64,000 nucleotides of DNA from Amphiscolops sp. MND2022. Taxonomy: Eukaryota. Below the pieces are notes generated by a model. It was not told the origin of the DNA and made no database searches. It saw nothing but the letters and a program-made list of their open reading frames with translations. The DNA is taken from NCBI GenBank assembly GCA_964187785.1, contig OZ076409.1:23128001-23192000 (forward strand), in the 5' to 3' direction. Position numbers and translations under genes: made by a program. Position 1 is the first letter of the stretch, and the number at the start of each line of letters is the position of its first letter. Shown here one piece after another: positions 2,990 through 64,000 of this stretch.

Positions 2990-3024
2990 AACTCATTGAT
3001 GTTGTCGAAAAACTCAACTAAATT

Positions 3025-3500: not shown

Positions 3501-4243
3501 ATTTGTACAATGCCTTTTAGTAATTATCCTCCAAACGATAATTGAATCAGTCACCATGATGATAAGAACACGCGGTAGTAAAGCCTCAGTTTAAGAGGCA
3601 ATTGAGACAATTGCGTGCTAAAATGACTGGTGCTTGCGGTCATACTGGATCAAACATGAATAATTAAACGCCGATTATCACCCGTCACGACTGTAGCCAC
3701 CAGTCGTCAAGTGCAATTAAACAGCAATTAGTAAATCGAATGTCATTGGCTAAAAGCAAAGGTGCTAACACACCTTTATAGTTACACAATCGGGTAAAAC
3801 CGAACTCACTCACAAGTTGTAACCATTGATATAACCAGTTGCCTACTACCTTGCTTACGAGTTGTCAATCCTTATTTTAACATTAAAACATTCCAATTCA
3901 ACTTAAATTTCCAGACTTTTCATGGTAATTACCAGATCTCAAAGTAGTCAAAATAGACAAGTAGAAACTGAAAATATGGATAGATCAAGCGATAACGAAA
4001 GTGTAGCCAGTTTCCCTGAACTTTTATCCAGAGACCAAATGGTAGACCTTGACTCTGACGACGTTTTAACTAGACGTCAAAACAGTAACAGTTATAACAT
4101 TGACCAGCGATTTAATGAGATAAATAGACAAATCGGAGACCTTATCAATATAGTCCTTACACTGACCAATCAGTTTGCCTCCGTTAATGGAGAAGGGAAC
4201 AGACTGAATCCAGCAACTACAAGTACTGACGGTCGTTCCGACA
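3501..4243 (+). repeat. 5' LTR of Gypsy 1 (3' 743 bp only)
   Basis: Near-identical to 17316-18058 (about 5 mismatches seen by eye). Ends ...TTCCGACA immediately before the PBS. Confidence 0.95.
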
Positions 4244-16160: not shown

Positions 16161-16962
16161 ATTGGATAACGCTGGGAGAAAAGGAAATAACTGAAACTCT
16201 CCGGGGAAATAATAATCGGCGACGAAGACACGACTGCAAAAGCTCATTCTTCCATTTATTGTTGTTATAGACTGATCACCTATTCCAATATACAATGGAT
16301 ACCTGATCTCCTCATCAAACAGTTTTACTCTAGTAAAACTGGACATTCAAGGAACCATATTTTTGGACCTACTTCCACCAGACATCAAATGCTAATTACA
16401 AGAAGCAGAAAGAAAGCAGTCGTATTTCCCGGCCAAAAAAGACTAATTCCCCGAACAATCTTATCAGTACAAGCGATACCCGAAAAACACAGGACTAACA
16501 GTGCAAAAAACAAAACATGGACATATTTTCATCATTGTGGAAGAATGAGCTAAAGGTTGACAAACGGAGGTGAATACTCTCAAATTAAAGCGGGATCAAA
16601 TTTCAATTCAAACAGTAATTGACTCGACTGACTTTCACTATGGCAACACAACAAATCAATCAACTGCCGATGATCGATGAAAAGTTGCTTAAACAAACAT
16701 CACACTCAATGCGCACTACACGGATGACGTGGCTGTCAAACCGTTTCTATAAATAGACTTCAACTTCCGACTACCTACTATTTGCCTGCCTCACCTTGTC
16801 CATTCACGCTTCCGAATGTTTCCGGAAGCTACATTGCCACCCACGCGTTTCTCTATACCTTGCAGGCCACTTCAGCCGCTGTTCAATACTCCACTCAGAT
16901 ATCTGCTACCTCTCAACTCGACCGTTCACCTTACCCATTACCCCTACAGCCTGCTCTCTCTC

Positions 16963-16976
16963 AAAAAGGGGGGGAA
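16963..16976 (+). promoter_or_regulatory. Polypurine tract
   Basis: AAAAAGGGGGGGAA immediately precedes the TG start of the 3' LTR. Confidence 0.9.
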
Positions 16977-18058
16977 TGTCATGCCCGCCAAGCGTGAAGG
17001 AATTAAACGAACTCTAAAACATTAATTTATACATCAAACTCCCTAAAATACAGATCATCATGAAAATACATTGCAGTAATTTATTCCCCGAACAATACAG
17101 TTGAGAGTATAACGACTGGAACTAACAGTCATCAATACTAAATTCATTCATATTATTGTGCATCGTTTAGAAACCAAGACTGAAACAATCAGTCATCAGC
17201 TATCGTGATAGTTTGTGATTTAATCATTCTTCATCCATTTTTTATATTACATGTAAAGTATTACCAGAATATTCAATCATTCATAACAACTACATTTCGT
17301 TCATTCATATTAGCAATTTATACAATGCCTTTTAATAATTATCCTCCAAACGATAATTGAATCAGTCACCATGATGATAAGAACACGCGGTAGTAAAGCC
17401 TCAGTTTAAGAGGCAATTGAGACAATTGCGTGCTAAAATGACTGGTGCTTGCGGTCATACTGGATCAAACATGAATAATTAAACGCCGATTATCACCCGT
17501 CACGACTGTAGCCACCAGTCGTCAAGTGCAATTAAACAGCAATTAGTAAATCGAATGTCATTGGCTAAAAGGAAAGGTGCTAACACACCTTTATAGTTAC
17601 ACAATCGGGTAAAACCGAACTCACTCACAAGTTGTAACCATTGATATAACCAGTTGCCTACTACCTTGCTTACGAGTTGTCAATCCTTATTTTAACATTA
17701 AAACATTCCAATTCAACTTAAACTTCCAGACTTTTCATGGTAATTACCAGATCTCAAAGTAGTCAAAATAGACAAGTAGAAACTGAAAATATGGATAGAT
17801 CAAGCGATAACGAAAGTGTAGCCAGTTCCCCTGAACTTTTATCCAGAGACCAAATGGTAGACCTTGACTCTGACGACGTTTTAACTAGACGTCAAAACAG
17901 TAACAGTTATAACATTGACCAGCGATTTAATGAGATAAATAGACAAATCGGAGACCTTATCAATATAGTCCTTACACTGACCAATCAGTTTGCCTCCGTT
18001 AATGGAGAAGGGAACAGACTGAATCCAGCAACTACAAGTACTGACGGTCGTTCCGACA
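16977..18058 (+). repeat. 3' LTR of Gypsy 1 (1082 bp, TGTC...GACA)
   Basis: Follows the PPT, has TG...CA termini, is followed by TSD TGCAC, and contains a copy of the gag N-terminus (ORF 17737). Confidence 0.96.
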
Positions 18059-18388
18059 TGCACCAATTGAGCCTTAGATACAGATCCGACTCTAGACGTT
18101 CACGTCTTGTTTGAAAACCGCCGACTAATAACAAGAAATGGTCCAAGTCGGCGCCCTGTTAAAAACAGGAAGAGCAAATTTGTTACATGTTCAGGGATAG
18201 TCAAGAAAGCGTACGTTCGCACCGGAGGCCTTCACGGAGCAGGAGTGTTTTTTTCCGTTTTTTTCTCTCAGATGACACAAATCGTAAGTAATCTGGTGCG
18301 ATGTATGGCATCAAGTAAGGGGGAGGGGATGGCAAACACCCGTAGTCTGCAAAAAAAACAAACGATAGGCGCACTACTATTTCTCATG

Positions 18389-19498: not shown

Positions 19499-19748
19499 TG
19501 ATTAAATCACAAACTATCACGATAGCTGATGACTGATTGTTTCAGTCTTGGTTTCTAAACGATGCACAATAATATGAATGAATTTAGTATTGATGACTGT
19601 TAGTTCCAGTCGTTATACTCTCAACTGTATTGTTCGAGGAATAAATTACTGCAATGTATTTTCATGATGATCTGTATTTTAGGGAGTTTGATGTATAAAT
19701 TAATGTTTTAGAGTTCGTTTAATTCCTTCATGCTTGGCGGGCATGACA
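19499..19748 (-). repeat. Displaced, inverted 5' end (250 bp) of the 5' LTR of Gypsy 1
   Basis: Reverse complement of 16977-17226. The outer flank GTGCA (19749-19753) is the reverse complement of TSD TGCAC at 18059-18063. Confidence 0.93.
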
Positions 19749-21711: not shown

Positions 21712-24700
21712 TTACTGTAATTCATTATCAATATAAAATTTGACTTTTTTCTGAGGAGGGGGACCACGGGTGGGAACTTCCACTGCTTCACAGTCTAAAA
21801 ATACATTTGGTTGGGTATTGGGTAAGTCTTCTTCGAAATCAGACAACTCTGTTAGGTCAATAACGTCTGGTAATTCACTTTCTTCTATTGCATCTTGATT
21901 AAGTCCAGGGTCGGGTGGGGAAAATAAAGCTGGTTGGTTGGAGTTTGACTGTATCGGTGACTGAATAAAGTCCTCCTCCTCGTCCCCCCAATCGCAATCC
22001 GCTCCAATTTCTCTGAATATTACGTCGTCTCGCAAAGAATAATGTCCAAAAGGTAAGGTATCAACGCCGTTTCGCATTATATATCTTTTATCGTCAAAAC
22101 AGCTTAGAGAAATTTTTGTCGTCTGCAAGGTAAACAGATTATGTCTTTCACTATTTATTGTGTAGTTTAATGTTCTAAGTAGTGTTTCTTTTTCGAGAAT
22201 TCGATAAAATACAGAGTGTTGTAGGTTCTTTTGTGCATGTTTGGTGGTTCCTTTTGCAGGAATTTTTTGTTGATCACCCATCGCGATTGAATACAATTTT
22301 GATTTTAGTGCAACAATGCTGTGTATGATTTTACCACCAACTTCGTCTTTGAATTTCAAAGTTTCCAACTTTTGATGTTTGGAATATAGTTGATTATCTT
22401 CTTTATAGTTTGAAAAGTCAAACTCTGGGTGCACTTGTTCGTTTTCTTTGAGGTCAGCGTATATGTCTTCCGATTCGATTTCATAAATTAGGGAATCTGT
22501 ATCGGAGTAGAGCACTAATGTTCGGAAGTTTGGTTTCATGTACATGTAATGAAACCAGTACATATGTCGTTTAGATAAATCCAAGATGGTAGCGCCGACT
22601 ATCGTTGGCTTGTCCCAGTAAATTTTGCGCTGTGCAAACGTTATGGCAGCCAACTGGTTGTTGAAAATCTTGAACGTTTTCATCCACATTTTGCTTGTTT
22701 GCTTTTGCAACTCATCTTGCGTGCGGACAATCTCAATGGACAATCGTTTTCTTTTACTTTCCATGGTTTTACCAAAAGCAGAGTTGCTCATTAGTTTGAA
22801 AAAGTTTTCTTCAAACTTGTTTGTAGACGCTTTTCGTTTCATTGTGTTTAACTGTATATATGGCTGAAGCCATTTTGACTGTTCAAATTGCAACACTCTA
22901 TGTACTTTGGTAACTTGTAACCCCAGTTCACAGTATAATTTCAATGTCATGTAATGTATAGTATAATTGGTTTTGTCGTAGAGTGTTTGGATCAACTTTT
23001 TGTTTTTTGTTGAAAAGGTCTTTGTTCCACTCATTTCCAGCAATCGTGTTTGATATTCACCGAGCCAAAAAAAATTAATTGTTTCCTTCGTAGGAGCCAA
23101 AGGGAAATCAGTGTGTAAATCGTGCAAATGATCAGGATAATGCAAGTCAACTTCCAATACATATCCAACTGGTGAGTCATTTGGAGTATTTAGTATTTCT
23201 TGTAGGTCAACTTCGCCTTCTCTTTTCAATACAAAGTTTTTTAAAGGCAAGGGGAACTTTTCCATGATTCCTCCATACAAGTTGTTTGCATCAATAAACA
23301 ACCCAAATGTTTGCTTCTGTGAAGAGTTGTATGTTGGTAGATATTTGTTATTTGCTTCAAATTTGCGTTTTGCAAACACGGAAGAAATTCCTACGCGGAT
23401 TAGGTTTTCAGCAACTTCAAGGTGTTCTCGATTAGTTAGTAATTCGATATCTGCGTTGCACACTTTAAGGAAGGCTTCACCGGACAAATTTGACGCAGTA
23501 TAAAAATGAGCACAATCCAGTCCGTAAGTTGCATAACACACTTTTCTAAACTCTTCGAATACCGAGGCCAAAATCAAAACATCGGTGTGTAAATATAAAT
23601 CGTGATAGTGACCTAGTGTTTTGCAATCAAACTCTTGGTATACAAGACTAGCATGTTGTAAATCCTGATCACTAATTGTGACTTCACCCCCTGCGAGAGT
23701 GTTTTTCCAAAACTCTTTTGGGGGAAGCTTTTCCTCGGCAAATTTATCGAAACTGTCCATGTATGAATAGGGATAAACACCTTTCCTTTTCAGCAAGTCA
23801 ATTTGCGACGGTGTTTTGTATGTATTGAATTGACTCTCCAGATAAATGAATTTATCCTGTGGTAAGAAACCCGCCAGTTTATCTAGTGACTGGGGCATGA
23901 ACTTGAAAGAGTCCAAGAATCGCATGTCTTCATATACATTTTTTGTCATTCCATTCTTGTCAGTATATGAGTTTACCCACACAGAAAATGTGAAGGAAAT
24001 GTACTTTTCGTCAGTTGTAGGAATAACTGAAAACTTGTTCTTTGGATTACAATTGTTGATTGCCGAACAAATGTGGTGTATATCATATCCAGCCATGTTG
24101 TGTGCTATCACGGGGGTGAAGTTTATTGACTTCCTTTGTAGATTACATTCTGAATGTGCCCACCCTAGGAATGTACCACTGTAATGACAATGGTCCAACA
24201 CTTTCTGCTCGTCATTCGTGAAAGGTTTTTTACAAATCCAACAATCATTTACAGTGTCTTTGTGCGTCGAAGGCTTGCCCTTGTAAATTCGGTGACTTTG
24301 TTTTCTATGATAAATGTCTGTTGCCAATTTTTCCAATTCTTTTATTAAATCGTCCAAGCAATCGGGACCTCGCATGATTCTGTAAGACAAAACTTTATCA
24401 TTTCCATGTTCTACAATTACAAAAGCATAACCACAAGGCACATGTTTTTCCAACTTTACTTGACTGCTAATACTGGGTGAAGGAGCGCATGTAGATAAAG
24501 GCACTAGGAGCGCTTCAGTATCAAGGTAAATAACCAGTGGAACAAACCAAACTGCTCTTGTATTTTTGAATTGATGTATGTTTTTATGCTCATCGGGTAA
24601 AATGATCGCCGCGGCCTCGTTTTCGTAACAGTTGAGCTTGTGTATTTCGAAACTCCCGGTTGAACTACAAATATGAAAACAGTTTCTGCAAATTTCATCC

Positions 24701-25879
24701 CTCGATCTACTTTGTTTATTTTTCAAAAAGTTTACAAAATGTTTCAAATCAGTAATCAGTACGTAGTGATGAGAACCTCCTTCTGACAACAATAAAAGAT
24801 CCATGATAAAGTCACTAGGGAATTTAGAGACTCTGAGAGGTAACAAATCTTTCTTCTCCAATATAAACACATTGACTTGGACTTTGTTGAGTTTTTCGAA
24901 TCGTTCAAGTTCATGAAACGGCATTGGCATCCGAAAGTTGCCTGCATGCTTTTTTGCCAGAGGATTATATGTAGGATTATAAGTGCCTGGGTTTGTTTTG
25001 CAGCGCCACGAACTTGTTTCAACCAATGGTATGTCTGTGTGCAAGTGGTAAGCGGCCGTATAACAATATATAAAGCAATTCTCATCTTCAATGTTCCGAA
25101 TATTGAGTAGTGACCTACAACCTTGAAGTTTATTTGGAAGTGCGATGTAAGAGCTACCCCGAATGGGAGAATAGGATGTAAATTTAACAAAAAGGTTTTT
25201 AATTTCGGACAAAATCCACCCACTTCCTTGGGATGCAAAAGTAAATAAAGCTGAAGTAAGTTGTTCTATCAATTGATAATAGTCGTTGTCTGTGATCCCA
25301 TAAAAGTAAACTGGTTGCAACTTTGTGTTGGTATAAATTGTGATTGTCTCTTGAGAGTCATCATCAACTTTCGGTTTAACTAACTTCAATTGAGTTGTTA
25401 ATTGAAATTTCTTGGGTCCATTGCGACATTTTTCTCTAATAAGGTTTTGTATTTGATTTTTTTCCTTACAAAGTAGTTCGAATAAATCAATTGATGTGAT
25501 CCTTCGCTTGAGTTGATACGTTTCCAATGATCCCCAAAAGGCTTTTTCCACCTGTTGATAACCGGTCATTCTTTCGATGTTGTCATTTTCGGGGGGTGTA
25601 AATATTGTTGGTAAACCATGATCATGCTCAAGATGATACGAGTATTTCATAGCTTCACCGTAAACTATGTTGCAATAAAGGCAATGATTTACTATTATAT
25701 GTCCATGTTTTTGTAAAAAATGTTGTTTCATCGTAACCAGAGAAGTGTTTTGAAAATCACAATCGGAGCAAGCAAAAGGTTGAACTTTGGGTTGTGTGTT
25801 GTGTATATTTTGCTTGTGCCGACGCAAATTTCTCAAAGAACTATATGTTTTTAGACAAAGATCACACTCCACACCCATT
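21712..25879 (-). CDS. polB: Protein-primed family B DNA polymerase with N-terminal C2H2 zinc fingers and an embedded endonuclease VII-like domain
   Basis: Motifs DANNLYG, KLMSNSAFGK, YSDTDS; exonuclease HNMAGYD and FLDSF; CWIC...DHCH...AHSECN. Three C2H2 fingers follow the probable start MGVEC. The frame is open from 25944. Confidence 0.96.
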
Positions 25880-25944
25880 TTGGAAAGTCGAGTGTTCCTC
25901 AATGTTGAGATTGAGAAAATGTTTTTGCACTTCGCTCCGATCAA

Positions 25945-38212: not shown

Positions 38213-41200
38213 ATGTACAAAAGTTATCCCAAACCTCAAAATGCTCTCAAGAGAGCCCAAGGTAAGTTTTTTCCCTTTTCAATTCCCTTAGAAAGGGTTA
38301 GTCTTTCAACGCCCTTCAAGAACATTTCAATGCTCCTCTTTTTTAGAACTCTGTGCCATTGGCAACTATGAGGAAGCTTTGGAGCTTCTGCAAGAAGTGG
38401 TCAAAGGCAAGCGAGTCCCTCGTGTCTGGCAAAAGGATATACATGAGCCGATCATGCAACTGTATTTGCAGTCATGTGTCCGACTCAAAAAATCGCAACT
38501 GGCCAAAGAGGGCTTGTATCAATACAAAGCTCTCTGTCAAACTGTTAATATAAAATCCCTTGAAGATGTCGTCAGAGAGTATTTGAAAATGGCGAAAGAG
38601 TTCACTGAGGATGCGAAAGCAAGATCGCATCAGAGTGTACTGGACATCGAAGACTTGGACAGCATCAATTCACCTGAATCGTTAGTTGACTCGAAGTTCA
38701 AAAATAATAATGAACAACAAGCGTGCTTGGTTTCGTAAATGATCGGCAGATTTTAATCCTCCAACTGAATTGGCCATGAAATCCTGTTTTAAACCTTAAG
38801 ACTGTATGCAGATAAAGACGGCGCATGAAGCTTTCAGCTGTAATTTTTATTGTAGGGTTCTGATGAGTGCTGTATCCAGTGAAGATACACAAGACAGGAC
38901 GAATCGCACAGTGCTGATGCCATGGCTTCGTTTCTTGTGGGAGTCATACCGACATTGTATGGATGTGTTCAAGAATCATAATAAATTGGAAAGACTCTAC
39001 CACGACATTGCTCGTGAAGCTTTTCAATTTTGCCAAGTTTACGATCGAAAAACTGAATTCCGTCGTTTGTGTGACAATGTTCGTTCCTGATTTTCATACT
39101 GTTTTTGCTCATAGAAAGTACATTGTTGTACAAGGTTTTTAATTTTTACAGCTGAGATACCACCTTGGTCAAGTACAGAAGTATCAAGGAATTGCTGCTA
39201 CCATTGATCTCAGCAGTGAGGAGACATTGGAGTATCACACGAAGACCAGGTTGCTGCAACTAGAAACAGCAATTGCTATGGATCTTTGGCTGGTGAGTCG
39301 CAACTTTCTTTGAATTATTGAAACTTGTGTGAAATTATATATTTTTGAAGCGCTACAGATCAATGACTACATTATTGTGTTATAGGAAGCATTCCGTGCC
39401 ATTGACGATTTCCATCTGCTTCTGGGCTATTACAAAAAGCCACCCAAGCCTCAAACCATTGTTGACTACTACCAGAAGTTTGCACTTGTTTGCTTTCAAT
39501 CCCGCAATATGCTGTACCATGCTGCCGCTCTTCTGAGGGTTTATGTCATCTTCCGAGACTACAAGAAGAGCTTCTCACAGGAGGAAATTTCAAGGTATAT
39601 TTGAATTGTTATCCACTTCAATGCTCGAGATTTATTTGAATTAAATATCAGATTTTCAATTTAACGTGTTCCACTGATCTTTTTAGGAGTCGGAAAAATT
39701 TTCGACTACTTATGCAATCGTGTTTTTTTTTCTCCCGACCTTTTCATGAAAATTTCAAATTTCTCAAAAACTGTCCATACGATTTTCACGAAATTTTGCA
39801 CAGTCATTCAACACCCAATAGGGCCCCTGCGTGTGCAAAGGCATCAAAATCGTATGGCTGGGATGTGAGAAACAGCCAAAATTAGCCCAAAAATGGCCAA
39901 AAAACAGCCATTTTTCGACTTTTTTCGATTTTCCCAAAAACTGTCCATACGATTCGAACAAAAGTTTCTACAGTCATTCTACACCATATTAGAGTCCTAT
40001 ATGTGCAATGGCATCAAAATCGTTTGGCTGGGATGTGAGAAACATTGCCAAAATTAGCCCAAAAATGGCCAAAAAACAGTCATTTTTCGACTTTTTTTCG
40101 ATTTTCTCACAAACTGTTCATACGATTCGAACGAAAGCGAGTCAGAAGGAAAAAGACTTAAGCCGACTCCTTTACCGCATATGCGGCTCTGGTATTTTGT
40201 TGTGACACCATTCTTTTTCTTATTTTTCAATACGTTGACTGGTTACAACTTGTCTGAGCATAAGAGCAATCCAACTTGGTCACTTCTGTCAGAATTGTTT
40301 TCTTTCAATGTGAGTATGTTCCAGTTTGTCCAACACGGTGTTGCTGGCTACTCTCACTATTCCGGTGCAGCCACATGAGTCGTGGTTGACCAAGTATCTG
40401 GATATGGGTGCCATCCACACGGAGAACCAACGCAGACTGTGTGCCGTTCTCAACTTGGCAGCTCCCCCTACTCGTAACCAGTTGCTCAATGATTTGGTAA
40501 TTTCACGATTTGTCTTGTCTCAAAACTTGTCACGTTGTAAAATTTGCATCGAGTTAATAACACCATCACATCTATTTGCATATAGTTTGAACAGTGTTTG
40601 AAATGGGAGGCGGAAATTTCGTCGCCAGAAATTTCGTCGCAGGAAATTTCGTCGCAGGAAATTTCGTCGTATTAGCAAATACAGAAGTTTCGTCGTCAGA
40701 AATTTCATCGTCGGAAATTTCGTCGTATTGATAAAAATTAACAGCGTTCGCGAAAAGAGCTTATTTGAACTATTCAATTATTTAATTAATAAAATAAGAG
40801 ATCTTAACAAGTTTCATTTTGACACCACAACTGGGTCAAAAAGTTGATTGCATTCAATCAATTCATCAAGACGCTTATTGAGCAATGGTATATTTTCAGT
40901 CCTGAACCATTGTACCGGTGTATGGTGATTCACACCATACTAGCCAAAATTTTGCTTTTCAAACTTGCACTATTTGTAAACAAAGCGCTAATATTGTTTC
41001 ATTTTTTTTGTCAATGATTCAAAATGGAGCTCTTTTTGTTGCTCAATTTAATTTATGGCGGAGAATATTTGCATTCCGGAAAATTGGCTTGTTCCGGAGG
41101 TGAATTTTTGCTTTTTTTTGTCAAAAAAATATTGGAAATTCCGGGGAATTTTTGCTTCAAGTGTCGAAACGGAAGCGGATAAAAAACAATGTGTATTTGG

Positions 41201-44200
41201 GGTGGGAGGGATAAGGAACATGATCTGAAACTTTCTCTGTTAAAACCATTACTAAAAGTCAATAAAAGCAATAATTGCACAATTACCGATAAATATTAAG
41301 ATAATTATCAAGACTCGATAAATTTTAAGACATCAATACCATTAGACAATTCCTAATAGCTTAGATAAATGCAACGTTTTATAGAGCGTAATTTCCGACG
41401 ACGAAATTTCTGACGACGAAATTTCCGACGACGAAATTTCTGGCGACGAAATTTCTGACGACGAAATTTCCGACGACGAATTTTCTGGTAATCTTTAAAA
41501 TACTTCTCATGTTTTCAGGGTCGGTTTTTCAAAGGCCCTTTCTTTAGTTTGAAATTTCAATACGAATTTCGATTGGTAATGCCTGACATTCTGTAATTTT
41601 ATTTGACCATGTATTGTTTTCAATGAAAACAATTTCATTATTGTGTCTCGGTTACAAAAACGACTGGCCAGATTACTTTTCTTCCTGAAAGGCTGTCATG
41701 GTCACTGATTTGATTGATTTATGACTATGAAACAGCGAAAGCGACGCGACGACTGAACTTTACGCTCATTTGATTGGTCGGAAATTTTGGCTATTTTGGT
41801 TTTTTTTTAAAAGTGTCCAACTCACTTTTTTGTACTTGGCGTTTCACCCGACACCAGTACAGTTGAAAGATTTCCAAAAGTTCAGAATGTTATCAAAAAA
41901 TTGCAGCGTTTGAGTACTTCGCTGGACCAAAGCTTTCTTCCAAAAAGCGCCGCTTAAGCGTTAGCGGGCCAGTCACAGGCGCAAAAGGCGACAAGCGCGT
42001 TTTTTGGTAAAACCTAATTTGCTAATGGTTACTATGATATTTTGCATGTCTACGATGAATGTATGAACTGTTGATGCATTTAGGAGAAATATGGGGTTTT
42101 GCAGTATGCCTCTAAGCCCCTGGTTGAATTGTACCACTGCCTGCAAACTCGATTCGAGCCACTCAAGATGCACGATAAGGTTTTGGAATGCATTGAGGGC
42201 ATAAACAGCATTCCTTCGAATGACAATCTGAAGAAGTACATTGATCTCATCGAGCCCGTGATGGTCGTCCGAATTCTGAAGCAGGTTAGAGTGTGAACAA
42301 AGAAGATTGACACGAAAACTGAAAAAAACATTTTAGGGTTATTCTTTGCTGTGTTAGTGACTGAATCAAAATTTATGTTCCGGTTACTGTTATTCAACAA
42401 GGAAAAATTTGTTGTTGAAAGAAAATGAAGTCAAGGCAAATTGGCTGTGATGCCATTTCTGGTTATTTTTTACCGTCAAAAGTTTAGCGGGACACCAAAT
42501 TATGTAATCTCAAACTGCAATTCATGGACTCCCGAATTTTTGCACATGACGAAGTCAATGTGCATTGCAGTCCAGCTAAGAAAGTTTTTTTTCCACAGTA
42601 GCCAACTTCATAATAAGCGCCTTTTAGAGAAAAGCCAAAACCCCAGAGAGATTCGAACCTGCAGCCTCCCGATTGCGCGGCATAAGTGTTAACCACTGTG
42701 CCATAAGGACGTTATTGAATAAAGTTGAACTGTTGAATATATACGCATGCGATTAAAATAATATATATACGCATATTAAAATAATCGTTGTCTTCGTCAT
42801 GTGTTGCGAAGCACCGCTTCGCCTCTGTGTATGAAATATTTGACTGATAGCTCACCAGTGGTTTTCTTTCCAAGTAAGGAAGCGTAGAGTCCAAAATTTG
42901 AATGTTTCCAATGAAACGTGCAGTTTCCACTTTCGCAAAATTCGAAGTTGTTTGCAATGGAAATAGATTCAATATTAAATAGATTTGGAATTATTTGGAG
43001 TCCCGAATCGGGTTATTTCACAAAATTGTACTTATAGACTTTTATGAATATTGCTTCCCTTTGTTGTAATTCAGTTATTCGAAACCGTTGTTTTAAGTGG
43101 CAGTTAAGAATACAAACTACGTCTTAAAACTTCCATCGGTTATAGTTAGTTTTTAATAAAATGCAGTTGTTGGTATCGTGACGATTGATGAATGCTGTGT
43201 TAGTTGATTGATGAACACTGGGTTAGTTCATACATGTGTTACTTGAACCTGTTTTAGAGGCATGGCTGTTTCAGATTTCGGAAATATACAAGCTAATCAA
43301 GATCGAGAGACTGCAGAGCATAATGCACAGTGTGAAGCCTTCTGACCTGCAGAGTTTCTGTCTGTGTGCTGCTCGCAACGGAGACGTGCAGCTGTCCATC
43401 GACGAGAGAGGCAAGTGCATTGTGTTCGGGTCTGACGGGGGACTCTCCTCAGAGGTGGGTAATGAGTCATCCACAGTTCAGCCCATGGAGAGTGAGGTGA
43501 TGAGGGAGATGATCAACGGAGTGGCCGCCACCCTCGACAAGAGTGCACAGCTCATATACCCTGAGACCTTCCAGGTTGGCTCATTCGTCACACGCAACTT
43601 CTTCAGTTATTCAACCAATTGTGCCACGCCAATTCAGCCCTATAAGTGCCTATCGATACGTCGTGTTTGTTGGTTCCACTGCAACACTGACTGACTATTT
43701 GATATCAAATTTGATCGTAATTTTCGAAAAAAAAACTTCATTTCGAGTACACGTTTAAAGTTGACTTGGGCCCATTTTGTGCGCAAAAATCAAAATTCTT
43801 GATTTTCTGTTGCCTTTTCGAAATTAGCAAAAGATTTATTGGTAACTTAGACAAACTAAAGAAGAGTTGTTTGATCTTTAAATTGGTCCAATTTAATGAT
43901 CGAAGCAATTCTTCTTTAGTTTGTCTAAGTTTACGATAAAAATCTGCTACTTTCGACAAGGCAACCCAAACATCAGCAATAATTCTGAACAATTTAGTGG
44001 TAAATTAAGGTTTTGAGGTTGAACACGGTGGATATGTGGAGATTTTGAGAGGTGTATTTTGGTTTTGCAGCATCAGAGAAGCAAAGTGCGAGACTGTGTG
44101 TCTACACTGTACCTCACTTACAGACAGAAGGAACACGAGCGGATGATGGAGCGACCTGAGAGGATAGAGAAGAGGTTGGAAGACATCGAGCGCGAGTGCA

Positions 44201-53705: not shown

Positions 53706-54817
53706 AGGACTTGTTAGAAATTATATGAGAAACTTTTTGCTTTGCACTTTTTACAGTTTTGGAAAATTCTCAAGTTATAACGGTTATACGTTACAGCCTA
53801 TAAAGCTTATAAAATCTGTCAATTCGTCCGTTTTAAAACGAGCCACTACTATAGTCGTCTCTTTCTACGAAAGCGCCCTAAAAACCTGGGGGACACAGAA
53901 AATCTGCAGCTAAAATGAAAACTTCAAAGGTCAAGAACAAACCAATTAACTACTTTAGCATACTTTTAATGTTTCTACAAGAAATTGGAAAATTCGAATG
54001 TTTTCAACTTTTTATGTAGGTTTTGTGCTACTCTCGAGCCCTGAAAATGTTTCAAGTCATGAAATACCATTTAATTATTTGTGAGGTGTTGTACTAACAA
54101 GCGGTGAATACCCGGAATCAGTGAGCATTATAAATCAGGGCTGTTATAAAGAATTCCTGAATCGCCGTCGAAAGGTCATGTCGATCGTTTTGGGGACCCT
54201 TTTGGCAAGCTGATAATTCATCAAAATAATATCAGTACAAGGACTTAAAAAATTAATTTTGCCCAAAATCTGATTTTTATTAATTCAGCGATAGCAGGAA
54301 TAATATTAAAATCTCAATTAAACTTTTATTCTGTTCACTTTTCGTCGTGATTTTGAGTACCTACTAAAAAATATAGACAATTTGTTTGGCAGTGAGTCAA
54401 AATTAATAATTGAACTCAAATTTGTTGCTCTTTAGAGCTTGCAAATTACACATTGGTTGTGACATCACAGCATAGCACAACTTAAATTGAAGTCCATAAT
54501 CTTCGTGCGACGTTAAATTTATAAGTGGTCGCACAACCAGCCACTGGGGCTGCACATGAAAATAAATGTATTCACGATTAATGATTAAAGATCAAGATTT
54601 AGGCCTGCCGATAATCTTGGTCGCATTCGACAATTTGAAGAGCATGTTGCAGTCTCAATAATATTTCCCGACAAAAATGAGAAAGATTTTTCAACTTCTC
54701 AACGTCACCTGTGTTCAAAATCCTATCAAAGAGCACAATACTAGGGCATTCCAGGCAAGAAGTATTCAGATTTTGTTACGATATTCGTGTAGTTTCGTAC
54801 ATTTGAGCAGCAGATGG

Positions 54818-55214
54818 TGTTACGACTAATACTCGGGTCGTTTTGAGTTGAACTTATTCTCACTGATTTTGTAGGAGTATAAAAGTTTCTAGTTTCCTCT
54901 TCTACTTCTTCCTCAGTATTCTCCCTAATACTTCCCCTTGTTTCAGGTTTCAAGAGCTTCAACATCTCCTTCTGAGATTCGACAAGAAGATTCTTATTCT
55001 CTGATGTTATTTCCTTTTTCAAGGAAGCCCTTAAACTTTCTAAGAGGCTGTTTTCAATCCGGGGGAATTTTGGGTCAGAAGGCCCCGCTACCTCATCGTC
55101 TTGGTTTAAGGAACAAGGATTTCCTACTACTATGGGTGAAATCAAGCCTTCACTTACGTTCTCACTGGTGCTTTGCTGATCGTTCCTTCTTTTCTGGCTT
55201 CTTGTTGTTGACAT
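54818..55214 (-). other. gag N-terminus encoded in the 3' LTR of Gypsy 2
   Basis: MSTTRSQKRR...DPSISRN ends at the LTR-terminal CA in the same codon phase as MVITRSQ...GRSD in Gypsy 1. Confidence 0.7.
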
Positions 55215-57227
55215 TTTGTAGAAAAGTTTGATCTTGAAGAATTGAATTTCTTTCAAAGATATTTTCTGACAAAGTAGAACAAGACAAGGTTTTGGTGAAA
55301 TTGAAAATTCAACTGAATTGTACAATTGCGAAAGACTGAGTCCCTTAGTTAGCTAAAATCATCGTATATATACCCTTCTAGCATCATTTGATCACGAGTT
55401 AAGTCCTAATTTCCTTCGAATAATTAGTCATTTCCTGTATTTTCGGTGCAAAAATCATTTTGTTCCCAATTTTGCGTCGACATTCCGTCAAATTTTAAGA
55501 CACGGCAAATCTAATCTAGCATTAGTCATCAACCGTAATCATATTATTTCAGCTCGGCGTCCTTTTGTTTCCTCCCAAGCAGGAAGTAGATATTACTTCA
55601 GTCTGTCAAACCGGAAATATTTCCCTGTTTTGCTGCTTTGGTTCGTAAGAAACTGACACTGAGGTGACGCCGGCATGAACAACTAATGCCTGAATTTTGA
55701 TATTTCGCTCGAGAAAAATGCTATGACTAATGTTTTCAGCTCTGTAATTTCCAATGATGCTAAGAAGGAATGAGATCAAGATTAAAGAATTAGCAACAAT
55801 CTCAAATTAGTTTCAAATTAAATAATTAATGGTTAACAAAATAAAACAACGACACATTGACGCTTGATGGCTTGATAGACTAAATTGTCTAATTCAGACT
55901 TCTGCCCCAATTTAATAATATTTCAATCACAAATGCTGACTAATATTATTTTAGCATTCATCCGATGAATATACATAACACACTGTCAACAGATTTTAAC
56001 TTGCACGTAAAATAATATTTCGAACAAAAGTTTGACGACGTGAGAACGGCACTTCGTGGATTTTCTGAACAAGCAAGAGTTCAAAACCTTTTATCATCAG
56101 ATCTTAATCATTACAAAAATGTACAATAGCAACACAAACATTTATTCTGAATTTATGCACATTGGGGTTAAAGCAATGACCATCCTGATTAGGGGACGAC
56201 GACGTGCCGGCGTCCAATTAAACACAACAAGGTAATAGCACACGCTTTATGTAGTACAAAATACAAACATATGAAAATACATTTCCAATACGAAAATACT
56301 ATCGATTTACTTTCGTCATGTCCATAAACTGTGACTTTCACCTACATTATACGGGGATTTCCATTTCAACTTAAGTTTTAGAGCAGAATTAACCCGGCAA
56401 AGGAAATGTTTGACGGAAACGTGGCGTAGGTTTTCAAATTCCCCACTAATTGTCTTGTTAAATCACCAAACACTTTAAACGTATTCCTAGCACTAATTAG
56501 TTTGATTGATATTCATCATAACTTTTGGATGGACTAAAACAGCTTGTTTTGATGGAATTTGGACGTACCGTGGACGTACGTATTAGTATTAGGCCTGGTC
56601 CAGAATAGTGGACGTAACGTGGACGCAAATTTGAAGTAAGAATTAGTCCGCGCCTAGAAGACAACACCGTGACGTCACTATGGCGGAAAATCGGAATGAT
56701 TTTAAGTAGTGTCACTAATATAGGCGGTAAATTGGAATGGTTCTCTAGTGAGCGCGGACGGAACGGTGACGTCACACTATATACTTTCAAGTCTGCTTCT
56801 TACCGACATCTAATATACATGTATTCTTTATTTTGTTTACTTAGCGCAGTGCCGACGTCCTAATCCGCACTAATTGCTGTTCAAAGTGCAATTAAGCTGC
56901 CTTTCTTAGAAAAGGAGTGAATATCTCAGTGTGTCATCTCAATGTAGTTTCTATTTTAGATTCAGATAATGTCCTTTTTCCAATGGTGATTTTGGGTATA
57001 TTTTCATTTAGATCGGTCTATGGTCTTTATTTCACTGCGTGTTTTAATTTAGTTTTCAGGTGGCAAATGTTTCTATTTTGGCGCACTAAGGACGTCCTAC
57101 CGGATGTGCGTGAAATCATCTTATTTCAATTTAGTTTCAGTTCTCATTTTTGTTTAAACTTTTCGTAAGTTGGGCGTTCGTTTTCGTATTCTTAGTCACA
57201 GTTTATTCCAAAGATAAGGTTTTAAAG

Positions 57228-57926
57228 TTACCAGTTAAAATAAGATTTGGGGAATCTCAGATTGCCTCCGTGTCCTCTCCCGATCTTCAGTCGTCTGCAA
57301 CCACAAGCCAGACCGGGAGCGGGCTGTGACAGGGCCGCTCTTGTAGGAAGATTGACTCTGCCCGGGGCTCTGAGTTGTGAAGCAATTGTCGGAGTAGTGG
57401 CGACTGGCTGTACTCTCCTCTCCAAATCGTTCAAAGGACTTGCCTGCAACAAATTTATCATCCTTGGCGTTCCCGGCGGGGTGTTGAAGTAAGAAGAGGC
57501 GTCTTCCTGGTGCACTTTTTCGAGATATTCTGCTACTTTACTGCTCGTTGTCGATTCTTTATCGTCTGCCGAGGGTTCAACAACAAATATGTCAGATGAC
57601 AAGCTCTCATCAGGGCTCTCTGGAGAGTCGGCCATTACTTCTTCTTCGGGGCTTTCCGACTGTGGGTATTGACCCGATTCCACAGTTTCGAAGCTCGTGC
57701 TGAGCTTCATTCTTTTGCATTCAGCTTCCAGGGAGTCTAGAGAGAGGTCGAGAAATTCTTCCTCATCTGCAGTAGCTTCCGCAGATGAGTTCAGTATTTC
57801 GACAATTATTCTGGGATATTCTTTGTTGGCCCTAGGTAGCGGGGTAGAAGCCCTCGTGATCTCACCTTCCTCTTCGCTTGACGACGAGATGTCGATCAAT
57901 TCGTATATATCTAGTAGATTATTCAT
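57228..57926 (-). CDS. Acidic Ser/Pro-rich, probably disordered protein within Gypsy 2
   Basis: Open 233-codon frame from MNNLLDIYELIDISSSSEEE, in the retroelement sense orientation. No domain recognised. Confidence 0.55.
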   Translation of the reverse strand: MNNLLDIYELIDISSSSEEEGEITRASTPLPRANKEYPRIIVEILNSSAEATADEEEFLDLSLDSLEAECKRMKLSTSFETVESGQYPQSESPEEEVMADSPESPDESLSSDIFVVEPSADDKESTTSSKVAEYLEKVHQEDASSYFNTPPGTPRMINLLQASPLNDLERRVQPVATTPTIASQLRAPGRVNLPTRAALSQPAPGLACGCRRLKIGRGHGGNLRFPKSYFNW

Positions 57927-58029
57927 CTTCTTTGTGAGGTTTCTTTCCTTTTGCAACTGTCGTTCGTATTTAATTGTTCCACAATGAATTTGGGATTAAT
58001 TAGGATTAAGGAGAATATTGGGATAAATC

Positions 58030-58335
58030 CCTCCATTCTGATTGGTTAAACAATCATTTTAATCCTTTTTAATCTTCAGGTGTTGACGCTGTGCCAACGT
58101 CGTTTTTTATTGGCTGCAAATTGAATTAATCCGTTCAGCCAAGTTTGTCAACGTTATGCTGACGTCATTTTCGCTAGCTTAGCTAACTTTTGTTTTGTCA
58201 CCGTTATGATGACGTCATTGTAGGTCATATGATTAGTTTTCTAACCTTAATGACCTTTTGCCGACGTTATGCCGACGTCAATTTCGTTGGTTCTCATCCA
58301 ACTTTAGTTTTGTCACCGTTATGATGACGTCATTT
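58030..58335. promoter_or_regulatory. Putative bidirectional internal promoter (CRE-like TGACGTCA x3, inverted CCAAT x2)
   Basis: TGACGTCA at 58160, 58210 and 58325 within a duplicated ~70-bp module. ATTGG at ~58041 and ~58109. Lies between two divergent ORFs. Confidence 0.5.
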
Positions 58336-58369
58336 TTGGGTTTGTTTTCAGATTCTCAGCTGTTTCTTG

Positions 58370-61300
58370 ATGGACTCCCGTCCAATTGCTTCTGTTGCTG
58401 ATCCTGGGGCCCAGAGTGGTCATGAGACACAGTACGTGTTTTCGGAGGGAGAAATGCGTCATAGTGACGCGGACAACGTTCGTTCGCGGGCAGTTGGTAA
58501 GTATTTTTTATTGCCTGATCCATTAAGCTTTAGTGAATGATACTACATCCAGATAGGCCTTTTCTGTTTCATATCTTCACAGCTTAGTTTTTCTTGACGC
58601 GTCGATGTTGGGATTGTACTTTTCTTTCAGAGCCCGAGGTGGTACCTCCTCCTCCTCCTGACGTAGGTTTGGACGACACTCCTGCGGTCAGTTCTAGTGT
58701 GGTCCCTTCAGTGGGTCCATCTTGTACTCCTTGTGTTTCCTCTGTTCCCGTCTCTGGTGGTGCTGAGACTCCTGAAGTGTCAAGGTCAAAACCTGGCATT
58801 ACTCTTCCTGGGCCACCTGTTGGTTCTTCTTGCGGAGGCGAGATGACATCCCCCGCGGGCGGTGATGACGTTTTCGGGGCGACAACTCCAAGAGCTGGGA
58901 TCCTTAGTCAGACCTCCAGATCTCCTCGGTTGTCATCTTTCTTGCCGGGTTTTGGAAAAACTTGTGCTGCCCTAGCGCAATCAGAATCGCGGAAGAGAGG
59001 TAAGCTTGAAGTATCATCTTGGTGTCTATATTGTGTGATAGTTTTGGTGTTTCATTTTTCTTTCTCTTTCCTCTCTTCTTCTAACGATTGTATCTTCGTT
59101 GGTATAATATATTGATGTTATAGTCGCGTCTACTGCTGCTGAAAGAACTGGGACAGGGTCTTCTGGCAAGAAAAAACGACAAGTGCGCGTCCAGACGGCT
59201 AACTTGCAGCTCGCTCAGCTGACTGTGAGCGGTAATAAAGATTTCTTTTCTTGTAACCATAACTTAGAGAGTCGTGATGACAGTTTGAGTATGGATCGAT
59301 TTTGTTTGTAGATTCTGGTGATTGTACTGCTCAGGACATCTCTGGAGTTAGCGATATTCCGGAAGTTGAACGTGCTGCAGTTGGACCTGTTCTGGCGAGT
59401 GAGTATTTGTATTATGATTGTGTTCATTGTTTTCTCTTTTCCTTTCTTTTCTCATTGGTACGTTTCGTAATCGTCATTTGGGCATTTTCTGTTGTCGTGT
59501 GGTTGCTATAGTCATGTTTTGGGTGGTATTAGTTCGTAGTTGTGTCGTTACATAGGGATGCAAGATCTCATGTCCCGAATGGAGAGTAGCCTGGAGGCTG
59601 TCGCCCTGCGTGAGAGTCCTGTCAGGAAGTATAGCAGTCGTCATCACTTGCGGAAAGACATGGTGGGCAATCATCCAGTCTTCAGCTTGTTCGTCAGTGG
59701 GGCCAGCAACGGGTCTGCATCGCGCTTCCACTGCATGATCTGTAAGCGCGATGTTTCGATGCAGTCTCGAGGTGCACGAGAGTTCGTTCGTCATTTCTCC
59801 GGAGATCGCCATTGGACACGAGATGTGGCATATCGAGTGCAGCATGGTATGCCAGTCTTTGATCAACTGATGAAACCTCTCGAGTTGACGTCTGAGCAGC
59901 GGGCTGAGTATCTCAGTCAGGACGTAGTCGAGAAAGACGAGGGTTTCAGTTTCCCCGAAAATTTGTTGCCTGCTTGCACTCGGGTCGATTCGACGATTCC
60001 TCTTCTCACCATGGTGAATTGTGTCGCTGAATTGTGTAGGTGGGGCGGCAGCTACGTCTTGCTTCGTAAACTGTGGGGCAACTTTCGCGCTACTCTGGGA
60101 CCTGACAATCCTCTATATAGTCTTCATTGGAATCGCCCTGAGACACTGGTCAGTAGGTTTTTATAGTATTAGTCTGTAGTATACGTAACGTAGTATTCAT
60201 TCTGCTGTTGTTATTTAGATGCGGGGCACTGACACGCTCGTCTATTCCGAGACGACGAACAAATTGCGACTGGGGATGTTGCTTCATGTACTTGATCTGT
60301 GTAAGTTGTTTTTGGTTTTTCACTTTCGTCGTTAGTATGGCCAGTCTTTGATAGGTTGTGTAGTATGGTGGTCACTCTGTTGTGTTTTCGTCTAGGTGAC
60401 GTAGTCTTCGATAGTTTGTTCTTAGTTTTCTCTTGTGTTTAGATCATTGCACTTTTAAGAAGCAGAAGTCTGGCCGTGCTGACTACGCGTTCCATGCGTA
60501 TAATGAAGTATGCCAATTTGTGTACTGTTTGCTGACCCGTAGCCGCAAGTTGTCTAGTCTGCCACCTCTCGACGATTGGGAATCTTACATGGATTCTTCA
60601 AAATTGGAGTCGTTTGAAAAGATTAGCAGTGACGACTTCTTGACCAATCATGAGTTCGGAGCTGAGTTGCATCGATCAAGTACCAGCGAGGTGTGCGAAT
60701 TTCGCAATCGCTGTCGGGAATTCGTCAAATCGTTTGGTTGACGTGATCTTGAGTCAGCAGGTCGTGTCCTCCGATTTCCTTCAGGGTCTGTATTGCTTCT
60801 GTCCTGAGTTGCTGCTAGAGGGGGACGATCGCCATATCTTCCAGCTGTTCTTTCGGCTGGTTCGTGTGCTTGAGCGTTGTGGCTGTCTTTCCAGTAGTGA
60901 TGCCCTGACTAGTCGTGAGGAATTTGCTACGTTACGTTTGTCGTCAGTGCTAGGACGCGACATCGTGACTCAGAGAGAAGGGCAGAACAGATTAAAGATG
61001 TTACTGTTTATTTGCTCTCTGATTACAGTTTTATGTCGCGAAGGAGTCTGGTGCGAGTCTTGAAAGTATGCTGCTTGGTGATAGATCGCCCTCAGAGGAA
61101 GATGCCTGATATTGAGATCGACTTGAAAGATTGTGCTGTTCCTGCTGCTGTCGTGATGTCGTGTTTGAGGGGCGTCCAAAGTCATGTGTCCTCTCCTGAT
61201 TACAAACAGGGTGCTTTCTTCACTCAAGGCACGATGGAGAGTGTTCGTGATGCGATCGCTAGCAGTCGCAATTTCATGTCGTGTGCTGGTTTTGATCCGT

Positions 61301-61764
61301 GGGAGGGCTTGGCGATTGGCGAACGTTCATCTTTCGTCCAGAAGTATTCGTCAGCTTTTGATGCTTATCTGAGTCGCAAGAAGAGCGAGGCTACTAAGCA
61401 GCTTCATAGTGCGAATCGGCAGCCGCGTCATGTTCAGTTCTCTGATTCAGGTGGTTCGGGCAAGTCAAGTGCCTGTAATTCTCCTCGTGCTGTGTTCCCG
61501 AGTTCCTCATTTGCTGTTGCTTCTTCAGAGTCAGGTTCTGAAGTTGGGACGTCAAAACAGCGCTCATATACTGCTGAGTCTGCATTAGCTGCTATTTTGG
61601 GACAGAAGAAGGAGGCGAAACCCACTAGTAAAGAGTCAGCTGTGCGGAAAGAGGCCTCCCCTAAGCTTGTCGTCAAGGATTCGGCGAAGAGTCAGAAAAA
61701 GGATGCCACGAAGAGTTCAAAGCCGTCTAGAAAACGGCCGGGTTCCAAGTCAGAGCTCGATTGA
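58370..61764 (+). CDS. Antisense 7-exon cargo gene in Gypsy 2: zinc-finger hAT-transposase-derived protein (frameshifts in last exon)
   Basis: Predicted exons 58370-58496, 58631-58999, 59124-59231, 59312-59398, 59556-60148, 60219-60300, 60443-61764, all GT-AG and phase-compatible. Zn finger at 59732-59812. Shifts near 60730 and 60940. Confidence 0.78.
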
Positions 61765-62067: not shown

Positions 62068-64000
62068 CTAGTGAGTCGTAGTGATAGCGTCAAGTCGTCT
62101 GAAGTCAGGATTAGCGTTAGGTTTAGGATTAGGTCGTAAATTGTATTTTGCTATTTTTCTTGGGTTATATCCGACAGCTGTAGGCGGTGATCTTGGGGGA
62201 ATAGGTGGACTTTCAATGGGTGGGGGGCGTCGTATGTATGGGTTATCTCCCACGTCTGTTGTAAGATTTGAAAAGTCCGGAGACAACGGCGCTGTGTCAT
62301 TTGTATCTTCGATGTAATTTTTTGGCGTTTGCGACGTTGCGTCTTCGTCATTTGTATTTGTCGCTTCTTGTGTTTCTGCGTGATGGTTGTTTCTTGTGTT
62401 TTCTGATGTTTCGTGTTCATCAATCTGTTTACCAAAATCCATTTCCCATGATACTGCATACCATTCATTGTGTGAGATTTTAACGTCTGGATCAGAAAGG
62501 TAGTCGTTGGCTCGTACTGTGTCGTCAGGCAAGCGTTGTTCAGGTACGTAAGGTCGTATTCGGACTCTATGTAGCGTTTGTGTGTATCTCGTTCCAAGTT
62601 TTCGTATTGTGTAGTTGTTATTTGATAGTGCTTTTATCACAATATACGGTCCTGTCCAAATGCAATCTTGGAACGCGAACTTTGTCGACTGATTGTCGGC
62701 TTTCGGGTTCAGAATGTAGCAATAGTCATTTACTTTGAGCGGGGCTGCCGACGCTTTGCGGTCGTAATATTTTTTGTATTTGAGATAAGACAGCATGATG
62801 TTGTCCTTCGCTGTCGCCCTCACTTCGTTGATTTGTTTTTGTAGTTGTTCTGCTATGTCCGAGTTAGGGGTGGTTTTCCACTTTGGCTTGATGCCCAGTT
62901 TTAAATCAAGAACGTTGTAGGGTATACGTCCATGGAATACTGTGGATGGTTCACAACCTAGTGTTTCATGATACGTTGTATTGTAATTCATGACTGCAAT
63001 TTGGACATATTTGTGCCACATTGAACGTCTTTCACCCATCGATATTTTTAGGGCAGTTTTGATTGAAGCATGAGTTCTCTCCAAAATTCCGATTGTTTGT
63101 GCATGTTTTGTAGACGCGTGGCTAATCTGGATTTCGAGTATCTGAGTTATTTCTGCAACGACTTCTGATCGGAATTGAGATCCCTTATCCGATAATATCA
63201 GTGTTGGCAAGTATGCGTGTCTTGTCATGACGTCGACAATGCAGCGTCCGATTGTTTTCGCTGTGACATTCTGTGTTGGGTATGCGAATAGGTAGCGTGA
63301 AAATACGTCAATCATCGTAACAATGTTTTGGTATCCTGCAGAATTGGGTAGGTTCGGCAATATATCGATTTCGAGAATGTCCTCCGGACCTAGGACGTGT
63401 TCCGTATTGTTGATCATCTTCGGTCTGATTTGACTGTTGTTGATTCGTTTGTATTTGATGCAGTCTTCGCATCGCATCACCCATTGTCTGATCCGTTTTG
63501 CTAGTCCGGGATAATAGTATTTTGATCTGAATTCGAGGATCATTTTTGTGATCCCTGGGTGTTTTCCCATTTGTCCATGGAGTGCTTTCAGAAGTTCAGT
63601 AATCAAATGCTCAGGGATTAGTATTTGGTGATGAGTAACCTGACCGCACTCTCCGTAGTATTTGCGCATGAGTATTCCATCTTTGACTATGAGTCTGTTT
63701 TCATGGACTAGGAGACGTTTTGCTGTCGGGTCAGTTTGTAAAAGATGTTTGTCATATTCTTCGCATATCAACTTCTTTTTGATTGCTTTGAAAACTTGGT
63801 TTGAGTCTTGCTCTACTCTGATGCGTGCGTCTTCTTTTATTGCCCCAAAGGTGTAAGAGGCTTTATTTATCGGGATTGGTGTTGTTTCTTTTATGGCTAG
63901 TTTTATTTTTGTCGTCTCTTCATCGCGCGCATTTTGTCTTGCTTGTTCTTTTTGTAGGAAGATTTCTTCTTCGGTTTCAATTGTTTCATCTGGAAGGAAG
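62068..64000 (-). CDS. pol: pol of Gypsy 2 (integrase region; 5' part outside the window)
   Basis: H....KHPG...C..C zinc domain, DDE core EID...SDKG...LERTH, GPY motif. Confidence 0.95.
   Translation of the reverse strand, partial: FLPDETIETEEEIFLQKEQARQNARDEETTKIKLAIKETTPIPINKASYTFGAIKEDARIRVEQDSNQVFKAIKKKLICEEYDKHLLQTDPTAKRLLVHENRLIVKDGILMRKYYGECGQVTHHQILIPEHLITELLKALHGQMGKHPGITKMILEFRSKYYYPGLAKRIRQWVMRCEDCIKYKRINNSQIRPKMINNTEHVLGPEDILEIDILPNLPNSAGYQNIVTMIDVFSRYLFAYPTQNVTAKTIGRCIVDVMTRHAYLPTLILSDKGSQFRSEVVAEITQILEIQISHASTKHAQTIGILERTHASIKTALKISMGERRSMWHKYVQIAVMNYNTTYHETLGCEPSTVFHGRIPYNVLDLKLGIKPKWKTTPNSDIAEQLQKQINEVRATAKDNIMLSYLKYKKYYDRKASAAPLKVNDYCYILNPKADNQSTKFAFQDCIWTGPYIVIKALSNNNYTIRKLGTRYTQTLHRVRIRPYVPEQRLPDDTVRANDYLSDPDVKISHNEWYAVSWEMDFGKQIDEHETSENTRNNHHAETQEATNTNDEDATSQTPKNYIEDTNDTAPLSPDFSNLTTDVGDNPYIRRPPPIESPPIPPRSPPTAVGYNPRKIAKYNLRPNPKPNANPDFRRLDAITTTH

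Follow-up and report, generated by a model that had tools for sequence, protein, structure and literature searches.

Genes that retrotransposons with long terminal repeats (LTRs) carry on the antisense strand, between pol and the 3′ LTR, are described from plant Ty3/Gypsy elements, among them Retand with TRP28 (PF04195), maize Grande with gene23, and rice RIRE2. In reports on them the origin and function of these open reading frames (ORFs) are called unknown, a regulatory role being proposed, and no likeness to other transposons is seen; the Grande gene is said to have a promoter of its own upstream and to encode a product found in the nucleus (PMC11963269, PMC7264820); a further paper likewise regards the function of antisense ORFs as unclear (PMC8220671). 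Here we consider a gene in the same position in an animal genome, which has Wnt genes. A 64,000-nucleotide stretch of Amphiscolops sp. MND2022 (assembly GCA_964187785.1, contig OZ076409.1, positions 23,128,001 to 23,192,000; hereafter the window) holds members of two Ty3/Gypsy families, Gypsy 1 and Gypsy 2, each of which carries a spliced antisense gene, termed the cargo, that is very probably a captured and disarmed hAT transposase.

The plant Retand/Grande antisense ORFs are the closest analogue, by a different protein. In both cases an old gene found throughout its lineage of Ty3/Gypsy elements lies antisense, between pol and the 3′ LTR, but the cargo has several exons, encodes about 1000 amino acids (aa), is swapped as a cassette and has a predicted fold that points to a whole hAT transposase; the Transposase_28 domain PF04195 has no match among the 20 and 9 proteins scanned. 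Captured domains also serve as accessory factors, anti-silencing or regulatory, that evolve faster than the core enzymes in VANC of VANDAL, TnpA of En/Spm and the ASY2-like domain of ATLANTYS, which are factors of plant elements and have other folds (PMC13547354). Among animals, the LTR elements of bdelloid rotifers have captured non-env genes after pol that are shared between element types (ORF3 genes of DEDDy, GDSL and env-like kinds); these differ in having kept their catalytic residues, and the main text of that report mentions no transposase (PMC5408684). No description of a captured hAT transposase in a Gypsy element was found in the literature, although subscription journals, Repbase, Dfam and supplements, which lay outside the search, may hold unannotated versions.

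A homologous antisense gene in two Gypsy families

The Gypsy 2 copy is bounded by LTRs with TG...CA ends and 99.3% identity to each other, and is flanked by a target duplication of 5 bp, the 5′ LTR lying beyond the window end (68047-70560 in extended coordinates, locus L031). Its pol is of Ty3/Gypsy type by the order of Pfam domains (RVT_1, RT_RNaseH, Integrase_H2C2, rve), and a primer-binding site beginning TGG is common to both families. The cargo sits between pol and the 3′ LTR, on the plus strand of an element that reads on the minus strand, so that the two run towards each other and pol ends at 62068. An earlier note on this DNA had placed the gene antisense, 3′ of pol and within Gypsy 2; the paired LTRs and target duplication bear this out, and a location outside the element is ruled out, as the gene is LTR-bounded.

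The same note had proposed seven exons. As to splice sites and frame that model stands, since all six donors are GT, the acceptors are AG, and the ATG at 58370 begins a frame that continues without a stop as far as the last exon. As the structure of the family it is ruled out, because the window copy lacks one family exon, and its last exon carries frameshifts near 60727 and 60925 and a stop at 60739. Among the 30 copies whose finger exon scores best, all but the window copy (29) have an additional exon of about 207 codons downstream of the finger exon, and in 25 of the 30 it is intact; the last exon is an open frame of 445-453 aa in more distant sibling copies. The Gypsy 1 copy in the window is also broken, near 14838 and 14512. 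With both window copies damaged, family-level conclusions are drawn from sibling copies, in which the cargo is a multi-exon gene for a protein of about 1000 aa.

The two genes share an identical zinc-finger spacing, C-x2-C-x16-H-x5-H, and their finger exons align by BLASTP (E 4e-7, 14 of 57 residues identical) over the peptides that the earlier note had quoted. The last exons alone give no BLASTP alignment, and BLASTN between the two genes yields no match at E 1e-10; the earlier note had seen no alignment of their DNA by eye. Core models were built for 15 spliced copies, with AG/GT splice sites in all but three places. Full sibling core models of the two families align by HHalign at 97.4% (E 1.2e-11, 601 columns, about 20% identity), which confirms the homology, and the best BLASTP pairs of Gypsy 1 and Gypsy 2 cores reach E 3e-7 to 6e-13 at 20-29% identity. 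The supposed likeness of the C-terminal peptides FDPWEGL and AIPWDQL is upheld by the multiple alignment, where FDPW of Gypsy 2 lines up with AIPW of Gypsy 1.

The introns carry the argument further. Two core introns occupy identical alignment columns in identical phases (0 and 1) in both families, the acceptor preceding the finger exon is phase 1 in both, and each family has one private intron. Shared introns together with homology point to a single capture before the two families diverged, as judged from gene structure, and the great age that the earlier note had assigned to the cargo is sustained by the same two facts. Independent insertions are ruled out by the common introns and by the deep congruence of the pol and cargo trees. 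A Ty3/Gypsy ancestor would thus have captured a hAT DNA-transposase gene complete with introns, antisense, between pol and the 3′ LTR, and the introns may have survived because their strand is not that of the packaged RNA but the opposite one.

A tree that includes a single outgroup places Gypsy 1 as the first branch (support 94), which makes the introns ancestral. The third clade lacks the 3′ introns without any alignment gap, and the acceptor before the finger exon is kept in seven of the eight copies read. Precise, 3′-biased intron loss is the product of recombination with reverse-transcribed mRNA, so that the cargo would be spliced in the cells that pass the element on.

The gene is widespread. 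Genome searches with the finger exons gave 8251 first-look candidates with Gypsy 2 exon 5 and 3177 with its Gypsy 1 counterpart, and all 150 candidates that were scored match, for either family's exon; a distant homolog retrieved additional families, in which the core is a single long ORF of 820-923 aa. The cargo copies run to hundreds and are spread over many subfamilies and at least three deep clades. Mining the genome for LTR elements with the cargo, as had been proposed, bore fruit: among 29 copies chosen across identity levels, with long frames favoured, 28 are bounded by direct repeats (LTRs), three pol clades are represented, and remnants of pol lie on the opposite strand in 26, the exceptions being a fragment beside a nested element, a copy with gag only and one without pol. 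Carriers are numerous and young, their LTR pairs being mostly more than 98% identical. The cargo is absent from all ten control Gypsy stretches (7.5 kb each, picked by RNase H alone and blind to the cargo). Pol in these controls is 23-26% identical to the carriers' pol where alignable (nine of ten), compared with at least 46% among carriers in the pairs compared. In a wider pol tree the supports bearing on a single clade of carriers are near 0, so that their grouping relies on identity.

Some carriers appear to be arrayed. Cargo matches at C10:2574432, 2588071 and 2601710 have a constant spacing of 13,639 bp, which suggests tandem elements sharing LTRs, and at loci L059-L060 an LTR-cargo unit without pol is repeated in tandem.

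Outside this genome, 321 database homologs of the cargo were found, some 99% identical to families in the genome and others only 27-51%; those looked up are ENA or Logan records. In 23 of the 35 database matches that reach the exon end, the next residues are consistent with read-through of the same donor site. JGI metagenomes and IMG/VR hold no related loci, one homolog (P0075) has no match in the genome at E 1e-45, and a search for longer relatives of the cargo found none, which is weak evidence.

Fold, zinc finger and catalytic residues

The assignment to hAT transposases comes from the predicted structure of P0064, a full-length single-ORF database homolog. Its AlphaFold model (30 sequences; predicted local distance difference test, pLDDT, 73.8) has a finger, an RNase H sheet at residues 273-360 and a long helical region. 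Searched with Foldseek, the model has Hermes in all ten best rows (best E 2e-4), and VIA places its residues 233-729 on Hermes 133-609 with Z 12.8 and a root-mean-square deviation of 5.7 over 398 residues, the next row having Z 6.6. RNase H fold, helical insertion and C-terminal region follow in the same order as in Hermes (PDB 2bw3, 8edg), and the cargo has an N-terminal Cys2-His2 finger. The profile of the P0064 family matches the Gypsy 2 exons of the window at E 6e-37 to 6e-8, and at E 1e-5 to 4e-4 it also matches three exons of Gypsy 1, in their proper order. The earlier description of the protein as transposase-like is thereby borne out. Atlas comparisons, which are leads only, give 0.79-0.82 to DUF4371/FAM200/ZBED5 clusters; a second Atlas query yielded nothing usable, and a DUF4371 query had no match in the genome, where its control matched nothing either.

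Several observations weigh against this assignment. The fold is that of P0064, from a family about 29% identical, and not of the window's spliced protein, and its Foldseek TM-scores to Hermes are 0.27-0.32 over the query. Neither P0064 nor any exon of the cargo has a Pfam match over cut-off, the hAT families PF05699 and PF14291 included; a search of the PDB by sequence returned one chance row only; and the cargo profile has no likeness to 17 resident Ac-type hAT ORFs (best E 0.5; HHalign 0.2%). The finger model on its own has no significant structural match, the ZBED1 BED domain standing at E 7.9. The connection to hAT transposases is thus one of predicted structure only.

In the finger the zinc ligands C108, C111, H128 and H134 are conserved across all clades, and the model of finger exon 5 is a beta-beta-alpha fold with pLDDT 88.6. 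As it lacks a significant structural match, DNA binding by the finger is only a prediction.

Catalysis by Hermes needs D180, D248 and E572, according to PMC2533014. At the positions predicted to correspond (the ends of strands 1 and 4, and residues 690-697), no D or E is conserved across 43 sequences from three clades, and we infer that the cargo protein has lost the DDE triad and would be unable to cut DNA. Against this, it was secondary structure and the aligned range, and not a residue-level superposition, that fixed these positions, and an acidic residue at 698, a few residues away, is conserved in all clades. A live nuclease, its acidic triad displaced, that would provide the element with a second activity on DNA is accordingly to be weighed; columns 384, 390, 431, 492, 659 and 698 are acidic in all clades, but it is very unlikely given the lack of conserved acids at the ends of strands 1 and 4, the absence of the CxxH motif found in the resident hATs, and the ends of the elements themselves, the six whose ends were read having TG...CA LTRs and short direct flanking repeats of Gypsy type. 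The resident hAT transposase ORFs (loci L112-L116) are 597-697 aa long and have recognisable catalytic motifs.

The cargo differs from Hermes in sequence (about 10-13% identity) and in setting, as it resides inside an LTR element and apparently not between terminal inverted repeats; among 25 of the 29 inverted pairs of at least 30 nt, none flanks either gene. Its nearest named Atlas clusters, again as leads only, are those of ZBED5, FAM200, GTF2IRD2 and ZNF862/DUF4371 types, which also retain a hAT body without transposition. Proteins of these types are encoded by host genes, whereas the cargo is multicopy and kept by another transposon.

Selection, exchange and possible function

Pol and cargo trees were compared for 19 elements, broken or short copies being left out. 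Of 16 splits, 8 occur in both trees, among them those of all three clades and of the main subclades, and pol and cargo distances are closely correlated (Mantel r 0.99, 0 of 2000 permutations), a correlation driven by deep branches. The other eight splits differ, a point against the reading of the cargo preferred below, and four pol splits with support of 84-100 conflict with the cargo tree. Identities are discordant as well: one comparison has LTRs 98.5%, pol 99.7% and cargo 75% identical, a second LTRs 73%, pol 94% and cargo 96%, and a third pol 99.3% and cargo 62.5%, while elsewhere the cargo is 55-62% identical in elements whose pol is 93-97%. Conflicting splits and discordant identities together indicate that the cargo has been exchanged between related elements. 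Among close subfamilies it is, on these comparisons, a cassette that moves independently of pol and LTR, with vertical inheritance at depth; the vertical inheritance claimed earlier therefore survives for the deep splits common to both trees and fails among close subfamilies.

The three of 19 pairs in which synonymous divergence (dS) is unsaturated have ratios of nonsynonymous to synonymous divergence (dN/dS) of 0.06, 0.08 and 0.12; in the other 16 dS is saturated at dN of 0.15-0.52. Splice sites are conserved while intron sequences diverge. By this measure of codon change the cargo is shown to be a true accessory gene under purifying selection, as had been supposed. That the cargo is an inert passenger, left by a nested and functionless hAT insertion, might be read from the broken state of both window copies, but is scarcely credible: dN/dS near 0.1 with saturated dS contradicts it, as do the splice sites kept beside diverging introns and the 207-codon exon intact in 25 of 30 copies.

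As to what the protein does, it is quite possible, if short of likely, that it is a nuclear, chromatin-binding accessory factor that counters host silencing. The cargo would be transcribed from an internal promoter lying between it and the divergent ORF3 and then spliced, as conserved splice sites and precise intron loss suggest; the protein, which would have retained its zinc finger and hAT body but not the DDE triad and so would not cut DNA, may enter the nucleus, judging by its basic Ser/Lys tail. There it would act in trans on chromatin and keep the elements transcribable, either by shielding them from the host silencing machinery or by tying that machinery up. The earlier note had suggested three roles, namely targeting integration, binding element DNA and countering host silencing. 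Among these, cassette swapping speaks for a protein that faces the host and against one closely partnered with the integrase or LTR of its own element; since a host-facing protein can diversify and be swapped, an anti-silencing factor is favoured, although the fast change of the cargo would fit relaxed constraint as well. VANC acts sequence-specifically, and action of that kind would predict co-variation with the LTR, of which the cargo shows none.

A broader proposal, possible but more doubtful, is that a class I lineage, and not the host, has domesticated a whole hAT transposase, which would circulate among the families of that lineage as an exchangeable, catalytically dead counter-defence cassette paired with ORF3.

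Exchange also bears on the idea that the disarmed transposase is an integration tether, binding host chromatin or DNA and steering the integration complex to safe sites. Retention of the zinc finger and transposase body and the presence of the cargo in every sampled clade of the lineage would suit a tether, but a partner of integrase should track pol, and cargoes have been exchanged on near-constant pol (75% against 99.7%, and 62.5% against 99.3%), which leaves this role unlikely. Less probable still is a protein that handles RNA, its matrin/U1-type finger binding unspliced element RNA for export, protection or packaging. Retroviral Rev offers an analogy. The H-x5-H spacing, a Pfam match to the SF3a60/Prp9 C-terminus over the finger (E 0.036-0.039) and a VIA row to TUT4 (model residues 33-98, Z 4.3) lean that way, but both matches fall below significance and the remainder of the protein has the fold of a DNA transposase.

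The antisense layout converging on pol raises, with slightly less promise than the RNA-handling idea, the prospect of a brake, in which the protein or an antisense RNA limits the activity of its own element, or the protein, being a dead subunit, poisons competing hAT transposases, with the result that the host tolerates the carriers. A dead enzyme with its body kept would suit a dominant-negative role, and control by antisense RNA was raised for plant elements by Vicient and Casacuberta (PMC7264820). Such restraint sits poorly with carriers that are numerous and young, and the lack of sequence likeness to the resident hAT ORFs examined speaks against poisoning.

Features of the window, neighbouring elements and wider meaning

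The features of the two elements are collected in the table below.

Table. Positions of the Gypsy 1, Gypsy 2 and cargo features in the window
Feature	Position	Strand	Remarks
Gypsy 1 element	3501-18060	+	LTR matches 3501-4245 and 17316-18060; gag-pol in several broken frames
Gypsy 1 homologous antisense gene	11999-16160	-	Core exons 14911-14353, 14234-13746, 13631-13421, 13272-11999
Gypsy 2 3′ LTR, about 2.5 kb	54818-57331	-	Partner 5′ LTR outside the window
ORF3, 232 aa, acidic, Ser/Pro-rich	57228-57926	-	Same strand as pol, divergent from cargo
Conserved intergenic stretch between divergent cargo and ORF3 starts	57927-58369	.	Holds three of the seven TGACGTCA sites in the window
Cargo exon 1, beginning the disordered N-terminus	58370-58496	+	ATG at 58370; ATG and GT donor kept in all five subfamily copies compared
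Cargo exon 2, low-complexity, Ser/Pro/Gly-rich	58631-58999	+	AG/GT conserved, phase 1
Cargo exon 3, less certain	59124-59231	+	AG/GT and open frame
Cargo exon 4, less certain	59312-59398	+	AG/GT, phase 1
Cargo exon 5, C-x2-C-x16-H-x5-H zinc finger, then helices	59556-60148	+	Acceptor and donor common to Gypsy 1
Deletion junction, about 750 bp gone, including the family's RNase H-fold exon	60192-60193	+	Alignment gap
Short cargo exon	60219-60300	+	Phase-1 donor at an aligned position identical to that of Gypsy 1
Last cargo exon: helical insertion domain, hAT-like C-terminal region, Ser/Lys-rich tail	60443-61764	+	Frameshifted in the window copy
Gypsy 2 pol 3′ end (integrase)	62068-63999	-	Pfam Integrase_H2C2 and rve over cut-off

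The region of exon 3 is arranged differently and aligns poorly in more distant subfamilies. The conserved stretch upstream of exon 1 is a probable internal promoter. On its other side, ORF3 runs through the polypurine tract region into the 3′ LTR and is conserved across Gypsy 2 subfamilies; it has no Pfam match, its position in the intronless clade is occupied by unrelated-looking ORFs, and no counterpart was seen in Gypsy 1. Its short hydrophobic-then-acidic motifs resemble SUMO-interacting motifs.

In both families the gag frame begins within the LTR (window 54744-55352 on the minus strand and 3907-4635 on the plus strand), with the consequence that the first gag codons are present in each 3′ LTR and the primer-binding site lies inside gag. 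A 250-bp repeat occurs as two inverted copies, 99% identical (16977-17226 and 19499-19748), one of them just inside the 3′ region of Gypsy 1.

Additional genes also lie within or near other elements. Another Gypsy lineage (L159:3037-7017, L160:3036-6971, L158, L166) has two sense ORFs after pol, an env-like and J-domain pairing: the first, of about 800 aa, weakly matches Baculovirus F in one copy, at an E of 3.6e-5 that falls below cut-off, and in the second, of about 350 aa, a DnaJ domain scores over cut-off. In L161 a Gypsy pol is followed downstream by antisense ORFs (2980-4134 and 4742-7498, both on the minus strand) that contain a TIR domain, at E 1.5e-20, and NIPSNAP repeats. Elsewhere in the window a 1410-aa ORF (21712-25944, minus strand) with weak C2H2 and Endonuclease VII matches is followed by more minus-strand ORFs to about 37000, which we guess may form a Polinton-like element, and 15-bp tandem units at 40596-40744 and 41372-41491 stand as inverted arms with about 740 bp between them and are probably those of a non-autonomous DNA transposon of small size.

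For antisense genes of LTR elements, the origin and function of which have been an open question in plants, the cargo offers an animal case with an origin that can be traced, namely a DNA transposase. The natural swaps, in which near-identical pol and LTR are joined to different cargoes, make its function testable from nothing more than genome and expression data. Were the protein to counter silencing, it would be a rare animal example, a retrotransposon anti-silencing module of known structural origin, and may help to explain how this lineage filled a genome of 1.07 Gb.

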